A stretch of DNA of 64,000 nt from Lophium mytilinum (GCA_010093605.1 MU004186.1:2212616-2276615); one strand, 5' to 3'. Positions 1,046-28,265 are shown, counted from the stretch's first letter. A program made the numbers and translations. The notes: generated from the letters alone by a model not told the origin.

Positions 1046-3524
1046 GGGTGAGAGGGGCTTGTGAGGGAGTCTGTGGTGTGTCTCTAAAACTGTTGCTGGT
1101 GCTGTAGGTAGGGGCGTCCCTAATTGAGGCGTGAAGGCATAGGGAGTGATTAGGGTATCAAAGAAATGAAGAAATAAACTTGCTAAATGGAGATAGGTGA
1201 TCCCTGACCCTGTGACGTTTCTGGGACAAATTAGGTTCCTTGGAGGCCACAGCGAATATGCCAGGACCAGCATCCTGCATTCTACAACCTGCATCCACAG
1301 CCGGCACCCGCAGTGACGGGAGCCTCCATCCCACCAGATGCGTATGCCGGGATCTGCATCTGTATCCATCCACAATCTGAAACGTGCACCTGCGGCTTGC
1401 ATCCACGACGGGCATCTCTCCCTGTAAGATCATAGGTCGAAAACACGTGGGAGTCACATGACGTGAGGATCCGGAAGGTATATAAACACCTTCCTGCTTT
1501 TCAACCATGGAGCAACGGGAGGGATGGGAAACAAAAAACAGTACTACCAAAGTTCGATAATGGTCCTTTGGGGTTCGTGCTGTCAAAATCATGAACGGAA
1601 GGAAACATTTGATGGTACTGGAGGGAAATCAACACTGCATCGAACCAATCGCGAATGGTGTCTACTGCAAAACTAGGCTCGCAGTGCCCAATGTGGGGGA
1701 GGGGTGGTTGCATTCTACTCCATGATTTCTATCTCTTTGGTCCGCTGCTGGATAACACCAACAGGAAACCTGGCCCGCTGTCGCCATCAATACCGTGTGT
1801 ACAGGGGCATCAGGGAGGAGGATGAAGAGCATCATTGGATGAATGCAATACACCACTTGAACCTCCCGCATTGCCGGCACGCCACATCAGGATATACTTC
1901 ATTCTCTTTTTGACCCAACAACCAGCCAAATCAGGCCACATGTAATGCGATCACCCTGTCGGTTTGATCCACCCCAATTTCCAAGCCATAAGAGAGGTTG
2001 TACGTCCATTTCATCCACCCCAAAGCCTCCCAAAGCTCATACCGTTTCGCCTTGTTGATTCCCCATCTCAGGTTGCCCGCCCTTGGAAGAAAGCATGCAG
2101 AGCTGCTGAGGAAGTTTTATACCGAGAGGGAAGTCGGGGTCACGTGGATTCGGCGTAGGTCACGAGACGGTTAGTCTTCTGGCGGTCGAGCATGGGGATC
2201 GTGCGCCCAGTCCTACACGTGCTTGGAGAATGAAGTGAGCAAGATGGGAAAGATCAGGTAGAGGTCACAACAGGTTCTTTCTCGTTCATCGAGACTGCTT
2301 CCCTCACGAGCACCTACTTCGCTAAACACATACCCTCATGAATAGCTAAGAGGAAATACCGTCACTGCTTTACTCCCACAAGAATTAAGAGATTTTCTGT
2401 TGTTGACCAACACGGTATAGACAGACAGTCCTCACATACTCTCCTAGGTGGTCCAAGAGAACGACCGCACTGCTGTTCACCACGTCCCATTAACGATACC
2501 TCTGCTCACCAAGAACAGCTATTTGCAAAAGCTTCACAGTAACCTCCTCTTACCAGGAGTGCTCACCACCGTCCCATCTCGCTGCTGTCAATCACCAAAA
2601 TCGCGCACTCCCACTCCCATTGCACTCTTCCGCTCGTTGTTTTCCCATCCCCCATACAAGCTTTGTTGCTTTCGGTTTTGCACTCCCAACGCACCAGCGA
2701 CATTAGTCTCAACCACTCGTTATGATCAAGCCATGTTTTTAGCGTACTGACGTTGTTGATGTCTCCAAACTCTCTACTCTGCTCAGCCGTCAAAGCCGAA
2801 GAGAAGTATTTGTACCCCGACCCCGCTGCGAGGTTGTGTCACGTTCCCAGTCACGAGTGTTGCTCCTAGGCACGAGACAGGTCTAAACAGAGCAATCTAC
2901 TTTTTGGTGGATTAGAAGACTGAGATGAGAACGGTGTGGTATAGTCCCTTCCTTTCCACCTTATTCCATAACGAGTTGAGTAGTATCTGTGTGCGTGGGT
3001 AGGTAGAGGAAATCCAAATCAGGGGTTTCTTGAAAATTCAAGATACCAAGCAAGCATTCAAAAAAGACTTAAGAGACAAACTAAACAAACCCGTTCGCGT
3101 AGAAAGAGAGAAAAATAGGGTATCACAGGCTCCAACGAGTTCGCAGGCCATAGCATTCATAGAAGACGAAGACCACGCGCATGAGTGCCAGGTTTACTAC
3201 TAGCCTCGCTTGCTATAGATAATTGTCACAGGCCAGTAAAAATTTCCTCTCCCCTCCAGAGAATTTGCTATATACTGTAAGATACGAAGATTCGCATACT
3301 TTACTAAGGTTGCGAACGCCCCCTGGGCAAGGACCCCCGTTGCTTGCCACTTACTAACGACTCAATAGTTCGAGGTGAGTGATACCTAGAGACCACTGAT
3401 CGCAGTTGACTGGTGGTGGCGAGGTGTTCGTGGAAATGTCTCGAAGAGGCCGCCAGGCGGCCACTGCAGCGGGAGAGGTGACGCGATTCACTTAGATTTA
3501 GGGGGCTCGAGGTGTATATAAGAA

Positions 3525-3650
3525 GGACGAGCTTAATTACCACCCCCCTATTCTCTCTATAGCCCCCCCCTTTTCTCTTTCTAGCCCCCCCCCTACTTTT
3601 AGCCTAGCTCCGGCCCGTATTAATATTATTCCACTAATTAAACTTACTTA
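3525..3650 (+). repeat. Left terminal inverted repeat of MULE
   Basis: Reverse complement of 6470-6595; the few differences are C>T/G>A transitions (e.g. ctctctat vs ctctccgt, tattatt vs tattgtt). Confidence 0.92.
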
Positions 3651-5790
3651 TTTAACTTTATAGAAGGCTGCGTAAAATAGTAAGTATATATTATAAAATA
3701 GAAAGGCTATAGTATACTAGCTATTAAAAGTCTATTTACTCTATCTATTAAAGCTAGTCTATAAGTAGAAGGCGCCTAGATAGCCGCCGTCTAATTACTA
3801 GCTAAAAGGAACGCTAACTAGGCCTATATACTATAGCCTTATACCTAAATATTCTCTAGTTTCTTTACTATAGGTAGCCTCTTTCTTAGGTATAGATATA
3901 GGGGCATTCTTAAAGCCTAGTTAGCTATTAGAAACTAAGAAAATTAAGCTCTAAGTAGCTACTAGAGTGCCTATTTATCTAATAGAGTAATTTAGTACTA
4001 TATTATTAAACTATAGAGGACTATTTAATACTATAATAGTTTACTTAACTACTAGTATACCTATAGAGATACCTATTATAGTAATTTAGCTAGCCTATAT
4101 TTTAATCTATATTAATTAAGTTAGTTTCTATCTATCTATATTACTTTATATTTTATATATACTATCTATATAAATAGTAGTCTTATATACTTACTATAGA
4201 TATAATATTTCTCTATATAATTCTAGCCCTCTACTATATTAGCGCGCGCGCTAAGCTATACTTACTAGATTCTATTAAGTATTATATTTAAATTAAGATA
4301 GATTATACTAAGTTATATTTATAGGCATATAAATACAGCTATAGCTATAGCTATAGCTATAGCTACGCGTTATTTAATAAGGTCTAGCTAAGCCTATTAG
4401 ATATTCTTTTTAGCGCAGTATAATAGCTAGAGCCTTAATAAGAAGAAAAGAATCTATAGATAGATTTACCTTATTTAGAATAGAATATTTAAACTACTAG
4501 TACTAATAAATATTCTCTAGAATAATAGTATATATAGAGGTTACTATAGCATATAGTTTTTAGTATATTTTATAATAGTATAGTATACTATATATCCCCC
4601 TAAATATTCTATTATATACTAGATTAAAATTATTATCTTTTACCTTCTTAATCTAGCTAGTAAGTAGCCTTAGGCTCTACTTTATAACCTTCTAAATAAT
4701 CTTATTAAATTTAGGTAGCTTTACCCTATACTATAGAGCTCTATATTAGCAGCTAAGCTAGTTCTTTAGCTCTATACTCTAGTAGTAAATATATTAAAAG
4801 AGAAGGGTAACTATATTATAGAGGTTACCTATAGAAATCTAAAGATAGAACTTAATACTACTATTTAAGCCCTCTAGGCGTAAGGTTATAGTATTTCTAA
4901 AGTGCAGTAGAAGAGTAGTATAGTACTTAGTAATCTACTATTAAAAGGCTACTACTCTTTAGTAAGGTAATTAACTAGGCCTTATTTATTTATATAATCT
5001 TCTTCTATCTTCTTTTAAGTAGCTTTAAACGTAAGCCTTATAGGTTTTATAAGATAGAAATTAAACTTATTAATAAACTTTTTTCTATCTCTCTATATAG
5101 CTTCTATCTTAGCTACTATTAGATTTTAAGAGGCTCTACTACTAAGGTTAATTATATTTACTACTTTCTATTTATCTTTCTTCTAAATAGCTATAGCCTT
5201 ACTAGTAATATTCTTTTATATATACTATTTATATAGAATTTAAAAAATAGTAGAAAAAAACTTAGCTAGTATATTCTTAAGTATAAGTTCTTTATCTATA
5301 ATAAAAACGCCTAGTAAAACACCTAGGCGCTAGTATATAAGGTAAAGCTTGCGCACTATAAAGATATAGTTTTTCTCTTCTTTCTCTAGAAGAAAATAAT
5401 AGCTAAGCTTATAGTTCTTACTCTAATTATTAATACTATTAATATAGAGAAGTAGCATTTTAAAGTAATTAGTTTTATAGATGTAATTAAGAAGAATAAT
5501 ATCTAGATAGTATTAAAATATCTTAATACTCTAAGGATATATAAAGTATAGATACTTAACCTAGTTTACTTTATCTAGCTTATATTTATAGTAGTAATAA
5601 GCGTCTAGGTTATTACTACTATATTTTTTAAGTACTTTAAGTATAGCCTAAGTTAGAGTAAGCCTCTTAAGCTTCTTTTTCTTCTAGTTTTATCTCTTAT
5701 TATATAGGTTCTATATTATTACTTTCTTACTCTTAGTAAGTAGGTTATTAAAGATAGTACCTATAGGGGTGCCTCTATTAAGTTAATTAT

Positions 5791-5992
5791 TATCACGGAC
5801 TACGAGAGGCAAGGCACGGAGCACGGTGTTGAGCAAGGAACAGGGTGTATTTACGAAGACGAAGTCGCGTGGAGGTGGAGGTTCCACGCGGCGCAGGCTA
5901 AATACAGGCTGGAGGTGCGAAACCGCGCTAGCGCACGGGCTCACGTGACGTAGCCGAGGGCACGTGACATGTGCGGAGCTGGATCCGTCACA
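5791..5992 (-). mobile_element. Solo LTR of an LTR retrotransposon nested in the MULE
   Basis: 202-bp GC-rich island inside the AT-rich element. Ends TATCACGGA (TG>TA) ... TCCGTCACA form an imperfect inverted repeat. 5-bp TSD ATTAT at 5786-5790 and 5993-5997. Orientation inferred from TATA-like and polyA-like motifs on the minus strand. Confidence 0.8.
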
Positions 5993-6469
5993 ATTATAAA
6001 TACTTTAAATTATTTTCTTATTTAGATCTTAATATATAGCTAGAGTACTATTCTCTAGGTTAAATAGGTTATAATTATAAGTAGAAACCTTAACTTTAAA
6101 GAACTAATTACCTAGCTATAGGTCTCTTATAAAGACGCCTTTTATAGGGTAATTATACTTCTTAGTATAAATTCTCTTCTTTCTATTAGCCGGCTTATAG
6201 ATACCTATATAATTATAATAAATAAGTACTTTACGCACCTAAGGGGGCGTACGCTTATCTATTTTATTTCTATGCTAGATAATTATATACCCTTTCTACT
6301 TAGCCTAAGTATTAATAGACTTTATACCCTCCTCTATAGAGGCGTGGCGGCCCTAGAAGGGCGGCCGTAAAAGTATAGTATTAAAGTAATAATATAAAGA
6401 AAGTAGTATTAATATATTAAGAGTAAGTGCGCGGCTATTATAAATTTAAATTAAGTATAAGAGGGTAAG

Positions 6470-6595
6470 CAAGTAAGTTTAATTAGTGGAACAATATTAA
6501 TACGGGCCGGAGCTAGGCTAAAAGTAGGGGGGGGGCTAGGAAGAGAAAAGGGGGGGGCTACGGAGAGAATAGGGGGGTGGTAATTAAGCTCGTCC
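6470..6595 (-). repeat. Right terminal inverted repeat of MULE
   Basis: Ends ...GGTGGTAATTAAGCTCGTCC, followed by the TSD TATAAGAA. Confidence 0.92.
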
Positions 6596-6603
6596 TATAA
6601 GAA
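6596..6603 (+). promoter_or_regulatory. TATA-like element (TATAAGAA; pre-insertion site GTATATAAGAA) ~140 bp upstream of the 6743 ATG
   Basis: Followed by a pyrimidine-rich tract and a CA-rich leader typical of fungal core promoters; it is also the MULE TSD. Confidence 0.55.
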
Positions 6604-6742
6604 AGGTTTTTTCCCTCTCTCTTCTTCATCATACAGCAACCACTCTTTCCACACCACCACATCTGACAGCATCCGCAACCCCTCAAACCCCTCGAACCCA
6701 AACCAACTTCTATTCACTCCAAAGCTACCCATTCTTAGCAAA

Positions 6743-7573
6743 ATGGCTACCAACACCAACTTCATCCTACCCGAGAGGACCCAAGCGTTCATCAACGCGC
6801 TCCCGGCAGCGGTCTTCAAGGCCGAGCTCCGATCTTCCCTCGAGTCTTCTGAGTCCAAGAACCTCGACCCGTCCTCTCCCATCTGGGAGAAACTCCACCC
6901 CCTCGTCAAGCAGGCCGTCCTGGATGACGCAAACAACCTCGCTGCCAGCGCAGCCCATATACTCCACGAAGCTGACCCGACTCTTGTCCTTGAGGCTCGC
7001 AAGGAGCCGAAGACATTCGCCCGCTTCCAGACTAAAACCTCTTTCGGAGGGTACGACAAGCACGGGAACCCCTCTGACTCCGCCTGGAAGGCGGTGAACG
7101 ACTTCATCTCGTTCTGCATCCCGACTCGTATCCCGGATATGGTCAGCAACGTGCAGCGTCTCGTGGCAGCGGTCGCTGCGAACGGCGGCAAGTGGTACGT
7201 CAAGCCCGACAAGAATGGCGGCCAGGTGTGCCTGGAAGACGGCAAGGACGGCAACCCGAAGGACCTGTGCTGCTTCGTGTACGCATACCTCCCGGCCATT
7301 GGGTATGTCGTCGAGGTGCAGGTGAACCATCCGTTCGCCTCCTTCACCTTTGAGCGGGACTCCCTGCTCCGCGATAGCCCGGAGCTCAAGGGGAAGCTGG
7401 TTGACATGTGGGACGAGGGGCTCTACGGAGCTGTTCGAGATACGCTGCTCTGTCCTGAGGAATCTTCGGAGGGGGACAAGGCCGCCGTGCGGGAGAAGGT
7501 GGCTAAGGCATATGCCACGAAGACGCAGGATGCTGCTCTCTTTGAGATCTTGGATGCGGAGAAGCTTATGTAG
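6743..7573 (+). CDS. Intronless 276-aa protein, putative RelA/SpoT-like nucleotidyltransferase-fold protein
   Basis: Clean single ORF with good start context (caaaATGG) and strong GC3 bias. Motifs PK(90)TFAR(94)FQTK(98), ND(120)FISFC and YVVE(191)VQVNH occur in the order and spacing of RSH synthetase motifs. The gene itself is confident; the function is tentative. Confidence 0.6.
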   Translation: MATNTNFILPERTQAFINALPAAVFKAELRSSLESSESKNLDPSSPIWEKLHPLVKQAVLDDANNLAASAAHILHEADPTLVLEARKEPKTFARFQTKTSFGGYDKHGNPSDSAWKAVNDFISFCIPTRIPDMVSNVQRLVAAVAANGGKWYVKPDKNGGQVCLEDGKDGNPKDLCCFVYAYLPAIGYVVEVQVNHPFASFTFERDSLLRDSPELKGKLVDMWDEGLYGAVRDTLLCPEESSEGDKAAVREKVAKAYATKTQDAALFEILDAEKLM

Positions 7574-7932
7574 AGCATCGAGTGGAGAGGGAGAAAGCCA
7601 GGAAGCATCTTCCGGTGAGGGGGTGAGATGAGATGAAGTAGATTTTTCCTTTATCGTGATTGCTTGTGCTAGCCTCTGGATAGGCTATATAGCTAAGGGC
7701 TCCGGATGAAGGCGATTCGATACCTGGGTTGACAGCTGGCAAGCTGTCTTCGATTGAGATGGTGTTAGAATCTAAAATAGCTACTTCAATGCAATGGAAG
7801 CAATTCAAACTCCACTTATGGACTACGCTTATGAACCAACGTGGCGTCATGAGAGAATGATACCGGTCAAGACCTCGACTTATGATGTGATTAGCTGGCT
7901 GACCACAGTTCGTCACGATGATGACTAGTTGT

Positions 7933-10900
7933 TTATAGCATTAGAAGCATCCAAGAAATTCCGCTCATCCAGTATAATAGCCTCTGGGTAACACTCATCT
8001 GTCCCGAAACCGCGTTACCCGTATACATCGCCACACCCGATATCGTTCCGGCCGCAGCGCTCCCCGTAGGACGGCTGGACGGAAACTCTGTAGTAGTGTC
8101 GTCGTCTTCAATTTTCGTAGCGGAGGGAATAGACAGTGGCTGTGGCTGTGGCTGCGAGTTTGTTTGAACAGATGCTATAATTTGCACCCCAAACACCGCC
8201 CCATCAGAGCCAGCTGAAAGGATATATACGTCATTTCCGTCGGTGACAGTCTGCATTGCCCCGCCCGGTACTGCAGAGATGGCGATCGTTCTCGTCCCTG
8301 TCGGATCTAGGATCACGAGCCCAGATGGGCCAAGGCTGAATGTCTGACCGGCGGTGGTGAGAACGGGGTCGTGGAGCATCAGCGTTAGAGAGGGGTCCAA
8401 AATTAGCGGCATAGCCGAGGGCTCAACCGCAAAAGGCAGTGAGATAGTCGAAATACCGACTATAAGGCCTCCCCTAGTACCCAGGGACACAGCTGTGCCA
8501 TCAACTGTGATAGGCGGTGCGCCGGGTATGAGGGTGTGAGATCCAACCATTACAGCCGAGTTCGTGGGATCGAGGAAAAGAGGTTGCGTCCCTATCGTCG
8601 TGATTGGATCCGCAGATTGGGATGCAAGCTGTGGTACAATAAGCGTCGAGCCCCTGACTACTACTACACCGCCAGGACCCAAAGAGATAGGCGTGCCGTC
8701 GATGGTAGTAGGCGGTGCGCCAGGGGATAAGGTGTGTGATCTGATTATTACGGCCGAGTTCGTGGGATCGAAGAATAGAGTTTGCGTCCCTATGGTCGCT
8801 ATTGGGTCTGCAAGAAGGCTTGTATGCTGTGGTACGCCAAGCGTCGAGCCTCCGATAGTCACTAATCCACTCGTACCGAAGGAGACAGGTGTGCCATCGA
8901 TAGTGGTAGGTGCCGCAGCACGCGTGAGCTCATGGGTCCCGATAATGATACCCGAGTTTTCGGGATCGATGACTAGTGTTTGCGTACCCACCGTCGCTAC
9001 CGGAGCATGTGGTATCGTTGTCGGATCTCCTAGCGACGCTGGCGGATCGTACGATCCAGAAGACATGGTTGATACAGCGACCGGATCTTTCCTTGTGTTC
9101 TGGGGAAGTGGTGTCCCAATCGACTGAACCGGCTCTGCCGTCGATGTAGCCACGGGCGTGCTCTTCGTCGTGTATCCAACATTCGATTTCGCGGACGAGA
9201 AGCCACCCCCAGCTCCAATCGACTGCACACGCACAGGAGGATCGTTGACATATCCGATAAGGAATTCGCAATCCTGCCACTCCTCTTTCAGCGTCATGAC
9301 CTGTGTCGGCATCGATAGGTGAGGATGGTAATCGCCCGGGATGATGGTGGAATAGAGCTCTCCATCAGAGCCCCAGTCTCGGTCCTGGCCTTGCCATGTT
9401 ATCAACGGCACGGGGTCCACCAAGTCGGCGAAGTTGAAAGACCAGACGAATGGGCTGTTGCCGTTGCGGTAGCTGGAGACGTCAGAGCTGTGAAGGGTGA
9501 CGACGGCATTGGTGAGGATGGGGCCAAGGGTGTGTCTTGCACCGTCCTCGGCCCAAATAAGGGGGTAGCGAATGTAGGCACTGTTGGCCCAGAATGTAGT
9601 ACCAGACAAAATTACACTAGGCTGGTTGGCTGTCTCAATGTGCGTGACTAGTTAAGACCAGGGAGATTAGTTGGAGGTTAGAGTGGAGGCTGGTTTTGAA
9701 GGATGAAAGGTACCTACCTGGAGCAGTGGCGGAGGAACTTGGTATGGCTCCTTTCAATTTGCCGGGGTTTGTAAGTGTTGTGGCGCACAGGTTTCGAGAT
9801 ACGTTGGTCGTGATTTCCCAATATATCAGCTCAACGAGCGCCCCGGGATCTACTTGTGTTCAGCGCTGCACCTCTCTGAAAAAGGGTAAGAGCTTACTGA
9901 TAACGCAATATTGGCCCTTTGTTATCGGATTGGAATTAGGATCGAGATGTTTGGAGCACGCTGGGTTACTAGGTTGTGTTAACGGCAAGGGTACCGTAGC
10001 GATGAAGGTATTGCAAAACGATGGCAAAACCTCGTGAGAATATGCCGCTGATGCACAACTATAGGACTGCCAGAGAAAATCGCAATCGGCCTTGCGAATT
10101 TTGCAGTTTGGTGTGGCCAATGTTAAAATTGGACCAACGGTATCCGGTGTGCGTGTCATTGTCTTTGTTGGCATAGAGGATGTAGCCACACAGACTCCTG
10201 GACACATCTCTGAGCAAAGTGTTGTATATAGAGTCTCGATGAAGACATCTGGTTGGGTGTTGTATGAGAAGCCGTCTATTAGAGTAGTCGCGCTGAAGAG
10301 AAGATCGTATAGCGCGAAGGTTGCGGAGGTATACGAGCGCCACAAAAGATCGCAACTACTGGCATAGAGTATTCCTAAATAGGTTCAGCACGCGTACATA
10401 ACTCAGCTAATGATACATACCTGTACCGTGAGACGCAATACTTGGAGAAGAGAGTTGCTTAGTAGAAACCCCAAACGACGCGTTGAAGTTCAAACTACCC
10501 GACGAATGGGCACTTGACAGGGTGTTAGTTCTTGCGGTCGTGATATTCCTGATCGACCGAAATGTCATTACGCTCAGATTGCCGGCGTCTTTCGAGGATA
10601 ACCTAGGGGGAAGTAATGGCTCTGGTGTTATATAGATGTCGCTGAAATGGCCATCTGAGATAGGAGTAGTGGAGTCAGAAGAAGAAGCAGGTGATAGTCC
10701 AGGTGGTGTGAAGACACAGGGAAACCCGTCGTCACATACAACAGCAGTTGATGCGGAGGATGGAGCTGAAAGAGTAATGGGATAATCGCTTGAAGAAGCA
10801 TCGGCAGCGATGCTTCTGTCCTGATCCTTCACGTCACGAAGCTCTCGCGCAATATGATCGTCGAGATGTGACGCTACGACGTGATGATGTGTCGTGCCAG

Positions 10901-26195: not shown

Positions 26196-28265
26196 ATGGC
26201 GCAAACCAAGGACCAGCTGTTCCAGCGCCCTCTCTATGGTGAGCCACTCGCGCTCCAATCTAGACTTCTCACTAATCATATCTCAGTCTTCGACTTGCCA
26301 ACAGAAATACTGTCGACCATCACTCTCAGAAATGCTGCCGAGCAATCCCAAGAAGCCGCCTCCGAAACAGCGCCATTGACCACGAGCGAGTTGGAGGAGA
26401 AAGTAGAGCCTGAGGATGGAGGGCCTATCAAGGCTACGTCATGTACACTCTGTGGCCTGCAGTTTCCCACCGTACAAGAGCAGCGCAGCCATGTCCGGTC
26501 AGACTTACACGGATACAATCTCAAACAGAAGATAAGAGGCCAAAAGCCAGTTGGGGAGGAAGAGTTTGAGGGCCTTATTGGAGGTCGGTCTTTGATTCCA
26601 TTGCCCAGGTACGGCGGCTGACATGGTACAGACCTGAACGAAAGCATATCTGGATCCGACTCCTCTGAGTCAGACGACGAAGACGACCAGAACGACGGAT
26701 CCAAACCCAAAGACTCTACTCTCAGCGCCTTACTGAAGAGGCAAGCCAAAATTTCTAACCCCGAATTCGAGGATTTCGCATCGAAAAGACCAAAACGCGG
26801 CGCCGGAAAACCACCTCTGTTCTGGTTCACCTCTCCTACCCTGCCCGAGAACACGTCCTTGGGGATTTACCGCGCCATATTTTCTGATGTGGAACAGGAA
26901 GAAGAATCTCATATAGTAGAAACCATACGCAACAAACAGCTCGCACCCGTGTCACTCCCTAAAATCAAAGCCAATGCTGAAGGAGCAGCGCCGGCTGATC
27001 CCGCGAAAATTGGACCCCACTATTTCCTTTGCATGATTGGGGGAGGTCACTTTGCTGCCATGGTCGTGTCCTTGGCCCCCAAGATGGGGAAAAAGCACAC
27101 AGGCATAGAGGAACGCCAAGCCACCGTCCTGGCGCACAAGACATTTCACAGATATACTACTCGCCGGAAACAAGGAGGAGCGCAATCTTCCAATGATAGC
27201 TCAAAAGGCAACGCTCACTCGGCCGGTGCTTCAATTCGTCGATACAACGAAGCAGCACTGATGACTGAAGTGCGAGATCTTCTGAAGGAATGGAAAACCA
27301 TAATTGACACGGCCGAATTGGTTTTCATGCGAGCTACAGGAAGCGCTAATCGAAGAGCACTACTGGGTCCTTACGAGGGCCAAGTGCTGCGGAATAACGA
27401 TCCCCGCAACCGCGGGTTTCCATTCAGTACGCGTCGCGCAACGCAGAAAGAACTTATGCGAGCCTTTGTTGAGCTCACGAGAGTCAAGACAAGTACAATA
27501 GATGAGGCAGCCTTAGCGGCTCTTAATGCAGCACCGGCGGCTACCCCCGAGGCTTCAACAGAATCTACCAAACCATCAAAACCTCCTAAACTATCGAAGG
27601 AGGAAGAAGCAGCTATACTACATACTGCACAACTGACTGCATTGATTCGCCGCTCAAAAATACCAGCGATACTAAATTACCTCAGTTCCAATAAACTATC
27701 CTCAACCTTCCAATTCTTTCCAGCAAACCATCACACTCCGACTCCTCTTCATCTCGCATCATCTTTGAACGCCGGATCTGTAGTCCTTGCGCTACTCACA
27801 AAGGCCAAGGCCGATCCGACAGTCATGAGCGACGACGCACGTACACCGTTCAGCCTAGCTGGTGACCGAGCAACCCGTGATGCCTTCCGGGCTGCAAGGG
27901 GCGAGCTTGGGGAAAGCGCATGGGATTGGAGTCTTGCCGGGGTCCCTGCTCCTCTTTCAAAATCCGAGGTCGCAGAGCGTGACCAACGGGATAAGATTGA
28001 GAAAGCCGAGATAGATAAGCAAGAGGCGGAACGACGCAAAGCGGAGACTGAACGTCTAAGGAGAGAGAGTGCGCAAGAGGAAGCCAATAAGCGGGACAAG
28101 AGGTTAGGGAAAGGGAAGTCGCTCGGTGGCCAGCCTGAGAAAACCGGAGCAGAAAAGCGTGAGGAAGAATCGAGGGGATTAACGCCCGAGGCTAGGATGA
28201 GGATTGAGCGTGAGCGAAGGGCGAAGGCAGCTGAGGACAGGATGCGGGGGTTACGAGGCAATTGA
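26196..28265 (+). CDS. VMS1: Vms1/ANKZF1 ribosome-quality-control factor (C2H2 Zn finger, VLRF1 domain, ankyrin repeat, coiled coil)
   Basis: CTLC...HVRSDLHGYNLKQK zinc finger; MIGGGHFAAM and HKTFHRYTTRRKQGGAQS VLRF1 motif; TPLHLAS ankyrin; C-terminal RERRAKAAEDR VIM-like motif; two introns near 26239 and 26584. Confidence 0.95.

Follow-up and report, generated by a model that had tools for sequence, protein, structure and literature searches.

A divergent RelA/SpoT-synthetase-like protein encoded by an intronless gene of the fungus Lophium mytilinum

RelA/SpoT homologue (RSH) synthetases play a central part in the stress signalling of bacteria, in their toxin-antitoxin defence and in the killing of one bacterium by another, and to our knowledge they have barely been explored in eukaryotes outside plastids. 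A compact gene of the fungus Lophium mytilinum raises the question of whether an enzyme of this type may be encoded by a fungal genome. The gene resides within a stretch of 64,000 nucleotides (GCA_010093605.1 MU004186.1:2212616-2276615), referred to here as the window, i.e. the whole of the DNA analysed, and an earlier reading, made from the sequence only, had proposed that its product is RelA/SpoT-like (coordinates of all features are given in Table 1). This proposal is supported by the predicted fold of the protein, by homology detected at the level of profiles, and by the conservation of the residues predicted to form the donor site. None of the three checks set out in that reading as able to refute it, on the fold, on the conservation of D120 and E191 and on the distribution among fungi, contradicted it. 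On balance, and with moderate confidence, we favour the view that the product of the gene is a stand-alone enzyme of the RSH superfamily, cytosolic and composed of a single domain, which represents a divergent and uncurated clade and is predicted to be active.

An exhaustive phmmer search (1.84 billion representatives) identified 147 relatives of the window protein at E <=1e-3, including 56 at E <=1e-10, and the majority of these proteins are 200-299 aa long. Pfam family PF04607 (RelA_SpoT) was matched below its threshold (E <=1; best E 1.5e-5) by 22 of the 67 members searched. These matches begin at profile positions 2-4, i.e. at the RxK motif, and every other Pfam family was matched by at most one member. 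When the family alignment (140 rows) was compared with an RSH profile using hhalign, the two were aligned over residues 81-195 with a probability of 93.3% (E 2.8e-7, score 52.1), whereas the controls (one reversed and eight column-shuffled) gave probabilities <=0.4% and scores <=15.7. The RSH reference was a small one, composed of 10 sequences: the synthetase region of Escherichia coli RelA plus nine tblastn matches from a phage collection, of both long RSH and small alarmone synthetase (SAS) type. Moreover, the nearest clusters in the ESM Atlas, by features as well as by structure, carry PF04607 in part. Judged from these alignments, the window protein is homologous to RSH synthetases at the profile level. 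Comparison of the 67 members with NCBIfam, PADLOC and PHROGs revealed no family matched by more than one of them, a word-indexed search with the family profile returned four proteins, all of which were already in the alignment, and no homologues of 484-2000 aa were found in what was a weak search.

An AlphaFold2 model of the window protein, generated from a 67-sequence family alignment, obtained a predicted local distance difference test score (pLDDT) of 92.6 and a predicted template modelling score of 0.88. Foldseek ranked RSH synthetases as the best matches of this model: the top ones were CapRel, an exported SAS, Rel, RelQ, FaRel2 and Tas1 (E 7.6e-4 to 5e-3), with CapRel (7ztb, 9erv) and the exported SAS (8vx3) reaching E <=1e-3. 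Across comparisons the best structural matches were RelP, RelQ, CapRel, FaRel2 and Tas1. The longest VIA alignment was that to CapRel (202 residues, covering 19-276 of the model), and the identity to RelQ and RelP is about 12-14%. The segment CFVYAYL (176-183) forms a beta-strand in the model, as had been suspected, E191-V-Q193 is located on the strand 188-195, and the loop 147-173 is modelled with a pLDDT of 69-75. As modelled, the window protein has the alpha/beta fold of RSH synthetases.

Residue conservation was counted over the 140 rows of the family alignment. The register with E. coli RelA was taken from hhalign, with R252 and EIQ located by counting along the RelA sequence, and K254, S258, K262, D275 and R280 shown in the single-sequence alignment. 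All of the residues to which the sequence-only reading had drawn attention, namely K90, R94, K98, D120 in NDFISFC, and E191-V-Q193 following CFVYAYL, were found where it had placed them. Its assignment of the Syn1 motif requires partial correction: the motif is indeed basic, and K90 and K98 are aligned with their RSH counterparts, but the Syn1 Arg is R86, and R94 occupies the position of the Syn1 Ser. Thus, hhalign pairs R86, K90, R94 and K98 (conserved in 128, 138, 136 and 134 rows, respectively) with RelA R252, K254, S258 and K262, and the resulting motif differs from RxKxxxSxxxK by a longer R-to-K spacing as well as by the replacement of Ser. D120, paired with RelA D275, is present in 138 rows, and E191 and Q193 are kept in 137 and 136 rows. 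The helix following the catalytic strand contains an additional, apparently family-specific motif, in which H196 is conserved in 118 rows, F203 in 135, D206 in 124, S207 in 131 and R210 in 132.

In RelP, Arg78 and Arg112 provide the stacking contacts to the adenine, the phosphates are held by Lys80, Ser84 and Lys88, and Mg is held by Asp107 and Glu174 (PMC5794853); in FaRel2, the ATP donor and Mg2+ are bound by R64, R95, K66, S70, K74, D90, E145 and Q147 (PMC11782079). R86, K90, K98, D120, E191 and Q193 align with ATP- and Mg-binding residues of these two enzymes. In the mechanism that we propose, R86, K90, R94 and K98 would bind the triphosphate of ATP, with D120 and E191 holding Mg2+. An acceptor would occupy the variable beta3-beta4 loop, and its 3'-OH would then receive the beta-gamma pyrophosphate of ATP. 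In this region, hhalign sets YVKPDKNGGQ of the window protein against YVANPKPNGYQ (Syn3) of RelA. The sequence Y-[VI]-K-P-D-K-N-G-G-Q (7181-7216, residues 147-158) is shared by the window protein and one of its paralogous relatives in Mytilinidion resinicola; in the other Mytilinidion paralogue this stretch is either deleted or was skipped by the gene model. The majority of the family does not have it, NGG occurring in 6 of the 140 rows. The alignments suggest an RSH-like donor half of the site, combined with an acceptor half that is different and variable.

The gene itself has the structure anticipated from the sequence, since an intronless, stand-alone ORF (open reading frame) of 276 aa is present, with stop codons flanking it on both sides. 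Both M. resinicola homologues align with the window protein from residue 1, which supports the start codon. Run X3 (from a study other than that of the DNA runs, and with an RNA nature that is guessed) contains a single 1181-nt contig spanning the gene at a depth of 1186.9, free of differences, gaps and joints; its colinearity fits the absence of introns, and contigs of this kind cannot prove the ends, strand or level of a transcript. Elsewhere in 5500-9800, this run yielded one 221-nt contig (depth 3), together with 41 nt from a contig of 295 nt. The latter (depth 9) matches the window at 6557-6597 only, followed by 254 nt unlike the window, and its loose end at 6597 may stem from a further copy of the G-rich repeat edge or from some other transcript. 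Provided that X3 is RNA, as guessed, the gene looks to be expressed as an abundant, unspliced mRNA. It has a GC content of 60%, and a GC content at third codon positions (GC3) of 0.78 (0.59-0.72 in coding pieces nearby), and its indices of repeat-induced point mutation (RIP; TpA/ApT 0.66, (CpA+TpG)/(ApC+GpT) 1.11) indicate no RIP damage. The encoded protein is acidic, with a pI of 5.25; the median pI of the family is 6.0 (n=121), and in 104 of these 121 members the pI lies below 7 (bins 4 to 6).

The question of whether this is a pan-fungal family can be answered from its distribution, which is patchy. Among the named members, fungi are represented only by L. mytilinum and two other Dothideomycetes, Mytilinidion and Trypethelium, and the others originate from algae, giant-virus contigs and Chlamydiales; the family is clearly not pan-fungal. 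These named members form a subset of the 147 relatives, and most of the others that were looked up are unnamed proteins from metagenomes or run assemblies. M. resinicola encodes two paralogues, 60% and 55% identical to the window protein, and the member from Trypethelium subeluteriae (P0122) belongs to a divergent branch. In P0122 and its relative P0112 the catalytic Glu191 is replaced by Gln, and position 193 is occupied by Leu or Gln; this branch aligns with the query over the C-terminal half only (173-240), and may be a degenerate offshoot. Algal members were found in the green alga Coccomyxa sp. Obi and in the red alga Hildenbrandia rubra (EukProt entry). Three loci carrying a family member were identified in IMG/VR: one, on a 302-kb contig, lies beside deoxynucleoside kinase and RNase III genes, the second adjoins minor-capsid genes (P9, P2) of a nucleocytoplasmic large DNA virus, and the contig carrying the third is labelled a giant-virus MAG (metagenome-assembled genome). 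A scan of prokaryote genomes revealed five loci, four in Chlamydiales/Parachlamydiaceae/Protochlamydia MAGs and one in an 'uncultured bacterium'. Two Chlamydiales genomes that carry the family gave no match to PF04607, and a search of viral contigs with RelA for related loci gave no match.

In a quick phylogenetic tree (LG+G4, 140 rows), the window protein groups with the two Mytilinidion proteins in a single clade with a Shimodaira-Hasegawa-like approximate likelihood ratio test (SH-aLRT) support of 99 and a stem of 0.66, and the sister relations of this three-protein fungal clade are weak (SH-aLRT 81-85). The origin of the named members from very different lineages argues for horizontal transfer, as does the long stem on which the fungal clade is placed. 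The host-like codon usage (as measured by GC3), together with the paralogy in Mytilinidion, implies that any such transfer was old. Most likely, the gene entered the fungal lineage through an old horizontal transfer, after which its codon usage became adapted to the host. Of the acquisition from a non-fungal source that had been suggested earlier, the non-fungal relatives and the patchy range were borne out, but neither a donor nor a direction is supported by the tree.

It is of interest whether the family is accompanied by a constant partner. All-against-all BLAST of the neighbouring genes revealed no conserved partner among the eight viral and bacterial loci, except for two closely related chlamydial ones, and a Pfam search of these neighbours identified no partner in common. 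No antitoxin or immunity gene was found beside the family gene in any of the eight loci, and nothing comparable is present in the window, which agrees with the earlier statement that no cognate antitoxin is visible. An AbiEii toxin gene adjoins one of the bacterial copies. In two Parachlamydiaceae/Protochlamydia MAGs (loci L006, 2505-3422 (+), and L008, 5816-6735 (+)), the gene located directly downstream on the same strand encodes a NUDIX protein, which is intact in L006 (E 2.8e-12) and split into two ORFs in L008; it was not seen in the other six loci. These NUDIX proteins could be hydrolases of the product. The only NUDIX piece in the window is placed 35 kb from the gene. A fusion with a C-terminal DSPc phosphatase domain (residues 284-416, E 1.8e-18) was seen once, in a metagenomic protein of 421 aa (P0011). 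Another long member, the 537-aa P0028 from a Chlamydiales MAG (locus L005, 5010-6623 (+)), consists of the family domain followed by approximately 300 residues without a Pfam match; this extension is leucine-rich by eye, and an 818-aa ankyrin-repeat protein is encoded 1.6 kb downstream, so that the surroundings resemble those of effectors directed at eukaryotes.

Several observations weigh against the assignment to the RSH superfamily, against the activity of this copy or against its proposed origin. As had been noted earlier, no familiar domain is recognizable in the window protein, which has no Pfam match at E <=10. The 27-bit cut-off of PF04607 was reached by none of 64 members (best 25.6 bits), nor by any of the 78 relatives scanned altogether (64 plus 14, of 147). 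A comparison of the family with RelA alone by hhalign gave a probability of 0.3%, with the register as expected, a result superseded by that obtained with the 10-sequence profile. By sequence, the family profile matches no solved RSH structure: phmmer and the family profile returned only chance matches from PDB sequences (a glucanase at E 1.2 and hnRNP Q at E 0.74). Within the putative active site, C125 pairs with RelA R280. This position is occupied by Arg in 121 of the 140 rows and by Cys in the window protein alone, and the Cys125 codon was confirmed by contigs from two runs. Since an Arg that stacks on the donor adenine would be replaced, this copy may, by analogy, bind ATP poorly. The earlier remark that the Gly-Tyr pair of Syn3 is not clearly in place was justified: the acceptor-loop Tyr is absent, its position being taken by G159 (in a low-confidence part of the hhalign alignment), and no aromatic residue is conserved in the loop. 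In PMC5794853, this G-loop Tyr is called critical in every (p)ppGpp synthetase. Moreover, the Arg-Thr of the Syn4 sequence EIQIRT (E. coli RelA) is replaced by Gly-His in the family and by Asn-His in the window protein. With regard to origin, 70 of the 136 inner branches of the tree have support below 80 and a donor is not nameable, and vertical inheritance accompanied by many losses is formally still compatible with the data.

The change at position 125 makes it conceivable, though rather unlikely, that the window protein shares the fold and ancestry of RSH synthetases and is catalytically impaired, acting as a nucleotide-binding or regulatory pseudoenzyme. The donor adenine is contacted by the corresponding residues of RelP (Arg112; PMC5794853) and FaRel2 (R95; PMC11782079), and the loss of the catalytic Glu (Q191) in the P0122/P0112 branch demonstrates that loss of activity occurs among fungal members. 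However, the remaining ATP- and Mg-binding residues are all intact, and R125 is lacking in 19 of the 140 rows (T, Y, S, Q and others), including a copy from a giant virus in which the site is otherwise preserved, which indicates that this position tolerates change. Furthermore, the gene seems to be strongly expressed and has stayed free of RIP despite the adjacent RIP-degraded repeat. A different role would be that of a translation toxin or immune effector similar to toxSAS or CapRel, which would pyrophosphorylate the 3' CCA of tRNA and remain inactive until triggered, with viruses or non-self signals as conceivable triggers. The first-ranked Foldseek match is CapRel, which also gives the longest VIA alignment, the AbiEii gene accompanies one bacterial copy, the family occurs in conflict-prone genomes (giant viruses, intracellular chlamydiae), and RelA_SpoT serves as an effector domain in fungal NOD-like receptors (NLRs; PMC4986451). 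Nevertheless, we regard this as improbable, given the lack of an antitoxin-like or other conserved neighbour in the eight loci and in the window, the acidity of the protein and of most family members, and the apparent high expression. In addition, no fusion of NLR type or other longer fusion was found (in a weak search), and the Foldseek E-values of CapRel, SAS, Rel, FaRel2 and Tas1 are too close to discriminate between them. Of the earlier description of a 'nucleotide-signalling or toxin enzyme', the fold and the donor site of RSH type stand, but the partner expected of a toxin was not found.

Nucleotidyltransferases of the Pol-beta type that move a nucleoside monophosphate instead of pyrophosphate, such as MenT or terminal uridylyl- and adenylyl-transferases, carry a DxD or DxE pair on the catalytic strand. 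That the window protein belongs among them seems very unlikely. Structural matches to such enzymes do exist, but they span only approximately residues 55-195 and rank below those to RSH synthetases (160-200 residues). There is a single acidic residue on the strand concerned (S119-D120-F121), without a DxD/DxE pair, and the recurrent sub-threshold Pfam matches were to RelA_SpoT only. The possibility of a chance ORF, or of a gene mis-called in GC-rich DNA, was also considered, because antisense ORFs overlap the gene (6595-7407, 270 aa; 6767-7330, 187 aa); it was ruled out by the 147 homologues with their conserved motifs, by the confident predicted fold and by the high-depth colinear contig from a second study. 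If, as we favour, the product is an active enzyme of the RSH superfamily, its acceptor would most likely, on slender grounds, be a small nucleotide, and neither tRNA nor guanine bound in the canonical manner. Guanine in the canonical mode is disfavoured because the loop tyrosine is missing. A small nucleotide is suggested by the acidity of the protein, the phosphohydrolase-type partners (NUDIX, DSPc), the lack of an antitoxin and the apparent high expression, all of which are weak arguments.

Table 1. Features of the gene for the RelA/SpoT-synthetase-like protein and of its surroundings (positions within the window)
Feature	Position	Strand	Remarks
CDS (coding sequence) of divergent RelA/SpoT-synthetase-like protein (P0001)	6743..7573	+	ATG-to-stop, 276 aa plus stop, intronless
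Syn1-like motif R86-x3-K90-x3-R94-x3-K98	6998..7036	+	predicted ATP triphosphate/adenine contacts
Syn2-like motif D120-F-I-S-F-C125	7100..7117	+	predicted Mg-binding Asp; Cys at Arg position
Variable loop at position of RSH acceptor-binding G-loop, residues 147-173	7181..7261	+	length 4-29 across family
Syn4-like motif E191-V-Q193	7313..7321	+	predicted catalytic/Mg-binding Glu and adenine-contacting Gln; pairs with RelA EIQ
Family motif H196-P-F-A-x-F-T-F-x-R-D206-S207-x-x-R210	7328..7372	+	helix after catalytic strand
Probable unspliced transcript with untranslated regions	6634..7814		strand not shown; single colinear 1181-nt contig, run X3
RIP-degraded AT-rich repeat, directly upstream of gene (context)	3400..6560		GC 31%, TpA/ApT 1.80, (CpA+TpG)/(ApC+GpT) 0.25
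Leucyl-tRNA ligase gene, 3' end	199-1042

The genomic surroundings of the gene had been described as an accessory pocket next to transposable elements. This description applies only in part: a RIP-type repeat does adjoin the gene upstream, but the gene is otherwise flanked by the 3' end of the leucyl-tRNA ligase gene on one side and by ordinary core genes on the other. Within 3400-6560, contigs of the DNA run X1 reach a summed depth of about 200-1200, compared with 121-170 in the unique flanks, and other X1 contigs differ from this segment by G>A and C>T. The raised depth and these variants fit a repeat, in which RIP has left almost no ORFs of >=45 aa. Besides the leucyl-tRNA ligase gene, the window also holds a bHLH factor, pieces with a fungal-rhodopsin domain, an isochorismatase, a VLRF1 protein, an RFC subunit, a Byr2-type kinase and Rhp7. 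The next gene downstream (7933-9651, minus strand) encodes a Ser/Thr/Pro/Gly-rich protein of 459-572 aa without a Pfam match, which contains internal repeats ('TIGTQTLxxDPxNSxxxxxSHTL...PPTTIDGTP(V/I)SLG') and may be a secreted or wall protein. The 547-aa open frame at 26622-28262 (plus strand) contains the VLRF1 release-factor domain PF18826 (E 4.4e-59), and is probably an ordinary gene for a Vms1-type peptidyl-tRNA hydrolase.

The family described here escapes curated models, as its members stay below the Pfam threshold and give only stray single matches in NCBIfam, PADLOC and PHROGs. Surveys of RSH proteins based on hidden Markov models (HMMs) at E below 1e-4, such as that of 10.1101/575399, have probably missed most of it. 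A role in conflicts centred on eukaryotes is suggested by its range, which takes in giant viruses, chlamydiae associated with amoebae, algae and a small number of Dothideomycetes. We tentatively suggest, as a possibility on which we would not insist, that it represents an unrecognised RSH branch acting within eukaryotic cells, which is used on their hosts by giant viruses and intracellular chlamydiae and has been captured by a few algae and fungi, and which makes a 3'-pyrophosphorylated nucleotide or modifies an RNA end, with an acceptor that differs from the canonical guanine nucleotides. If such a eukaryote-acting branch exists, its product would be an alarmone-like signal or a weapon of conflict in the eukaryotic cytoplasm, and an active member would make tractable the question of whether this compartment uses, or suffers, 3'-pyrophosphorylated nucleotides. 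For L. mytilinum itself the meaning is more modest: one apparently expressed gene, with Cys125 casting doubt on its full activity. A search of open-access text found no literature linking 'RelA-SpoT homolog' with giant viruses.

Among the known systems, the classical small synthetases RelQ and RelP (SAS1, SAS2; PDB 5dec, 6fgk, 6ewz) resemble the window protein in their single-domain size and in the succession of the Syn1 helix, the strand with the Syn2 Asp and the strand with Syn4 ExQ. They differ in the Syn1 motif, which is RxKxxxSxxxK in these enzymes and R-x3-K-x3-R-x3-K in the window protein (R-x2-K in most family members), in the G-loop Tyr, which the window protein lacks, and in Syn4, where ExQIRT (as in E. 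coli RelA) is replaced by ExQ-[IV]-G-H in the family. The conserved HPFAxxTFxxDSxxR motif seems to be an extra feature of the family, which also differs by its occurrence in a eukaryote, giant viruses and chlamydiae. The likeness to toxSAS enzymes (CapRel 7ztb, FaRel2 8pu3, Tas1 6ox6) consists in the presence of equivalents of FaRel2 R64, K66, K74, D90, E145 and Q147. Unlike these toxins, however, the window protein is acidic, its gene is not part of an operon and has no antitoxin or immunity gene, no fused pseudo-zinc-finger domain was detected in it, and FaRel2 Y128, the acceptor-loop Tyr, is not conserved in the family.

RSH-type proteins have also been reported from fungi. In PMC3153485, the synthetase-only RSHs of ascomycetes are classified as divRel[S], their acquisition by horizontal gene transfer is proposed, and the fungi concerned are said to have no RSH hydrolase. 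The window protein is similar to these divRel SAS proteins in being an ascomycete synthetase-only RSH relative, without an RSH hydrolase nearby and with a proposed horizontal origin. A subfamily 'FunRel' has been named in a study applying a SYNTH HMM cut-off of E 1e-4 (10.1101/575399), and the clade analysed here is set beside FunRel by name only, not by sequence. Known fungal RSHs are detected by RSH or Pfam HMMs at E below 1e-4, in contrast to the window protein, for which PF04607 gave no match at E <=10. RSH-type synthetase domains further form the N-termini of fungal NLRs (PMC4986451), whereas the window protein is a stand-alone protein of 276 aa, not fused to NACHT or NB-ARC. Therefore, the occurrence of an RSH-like enzyme in a fungus is, as such, no novelty. 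The novelty appears to lie in the clade to which it belongs, characterized by a sequence below the threshold of existing models, by altered motifs and the lack of the G-loop Tyr, and by a range that extends over giant viruses, chlamydiae, algae and fungi.

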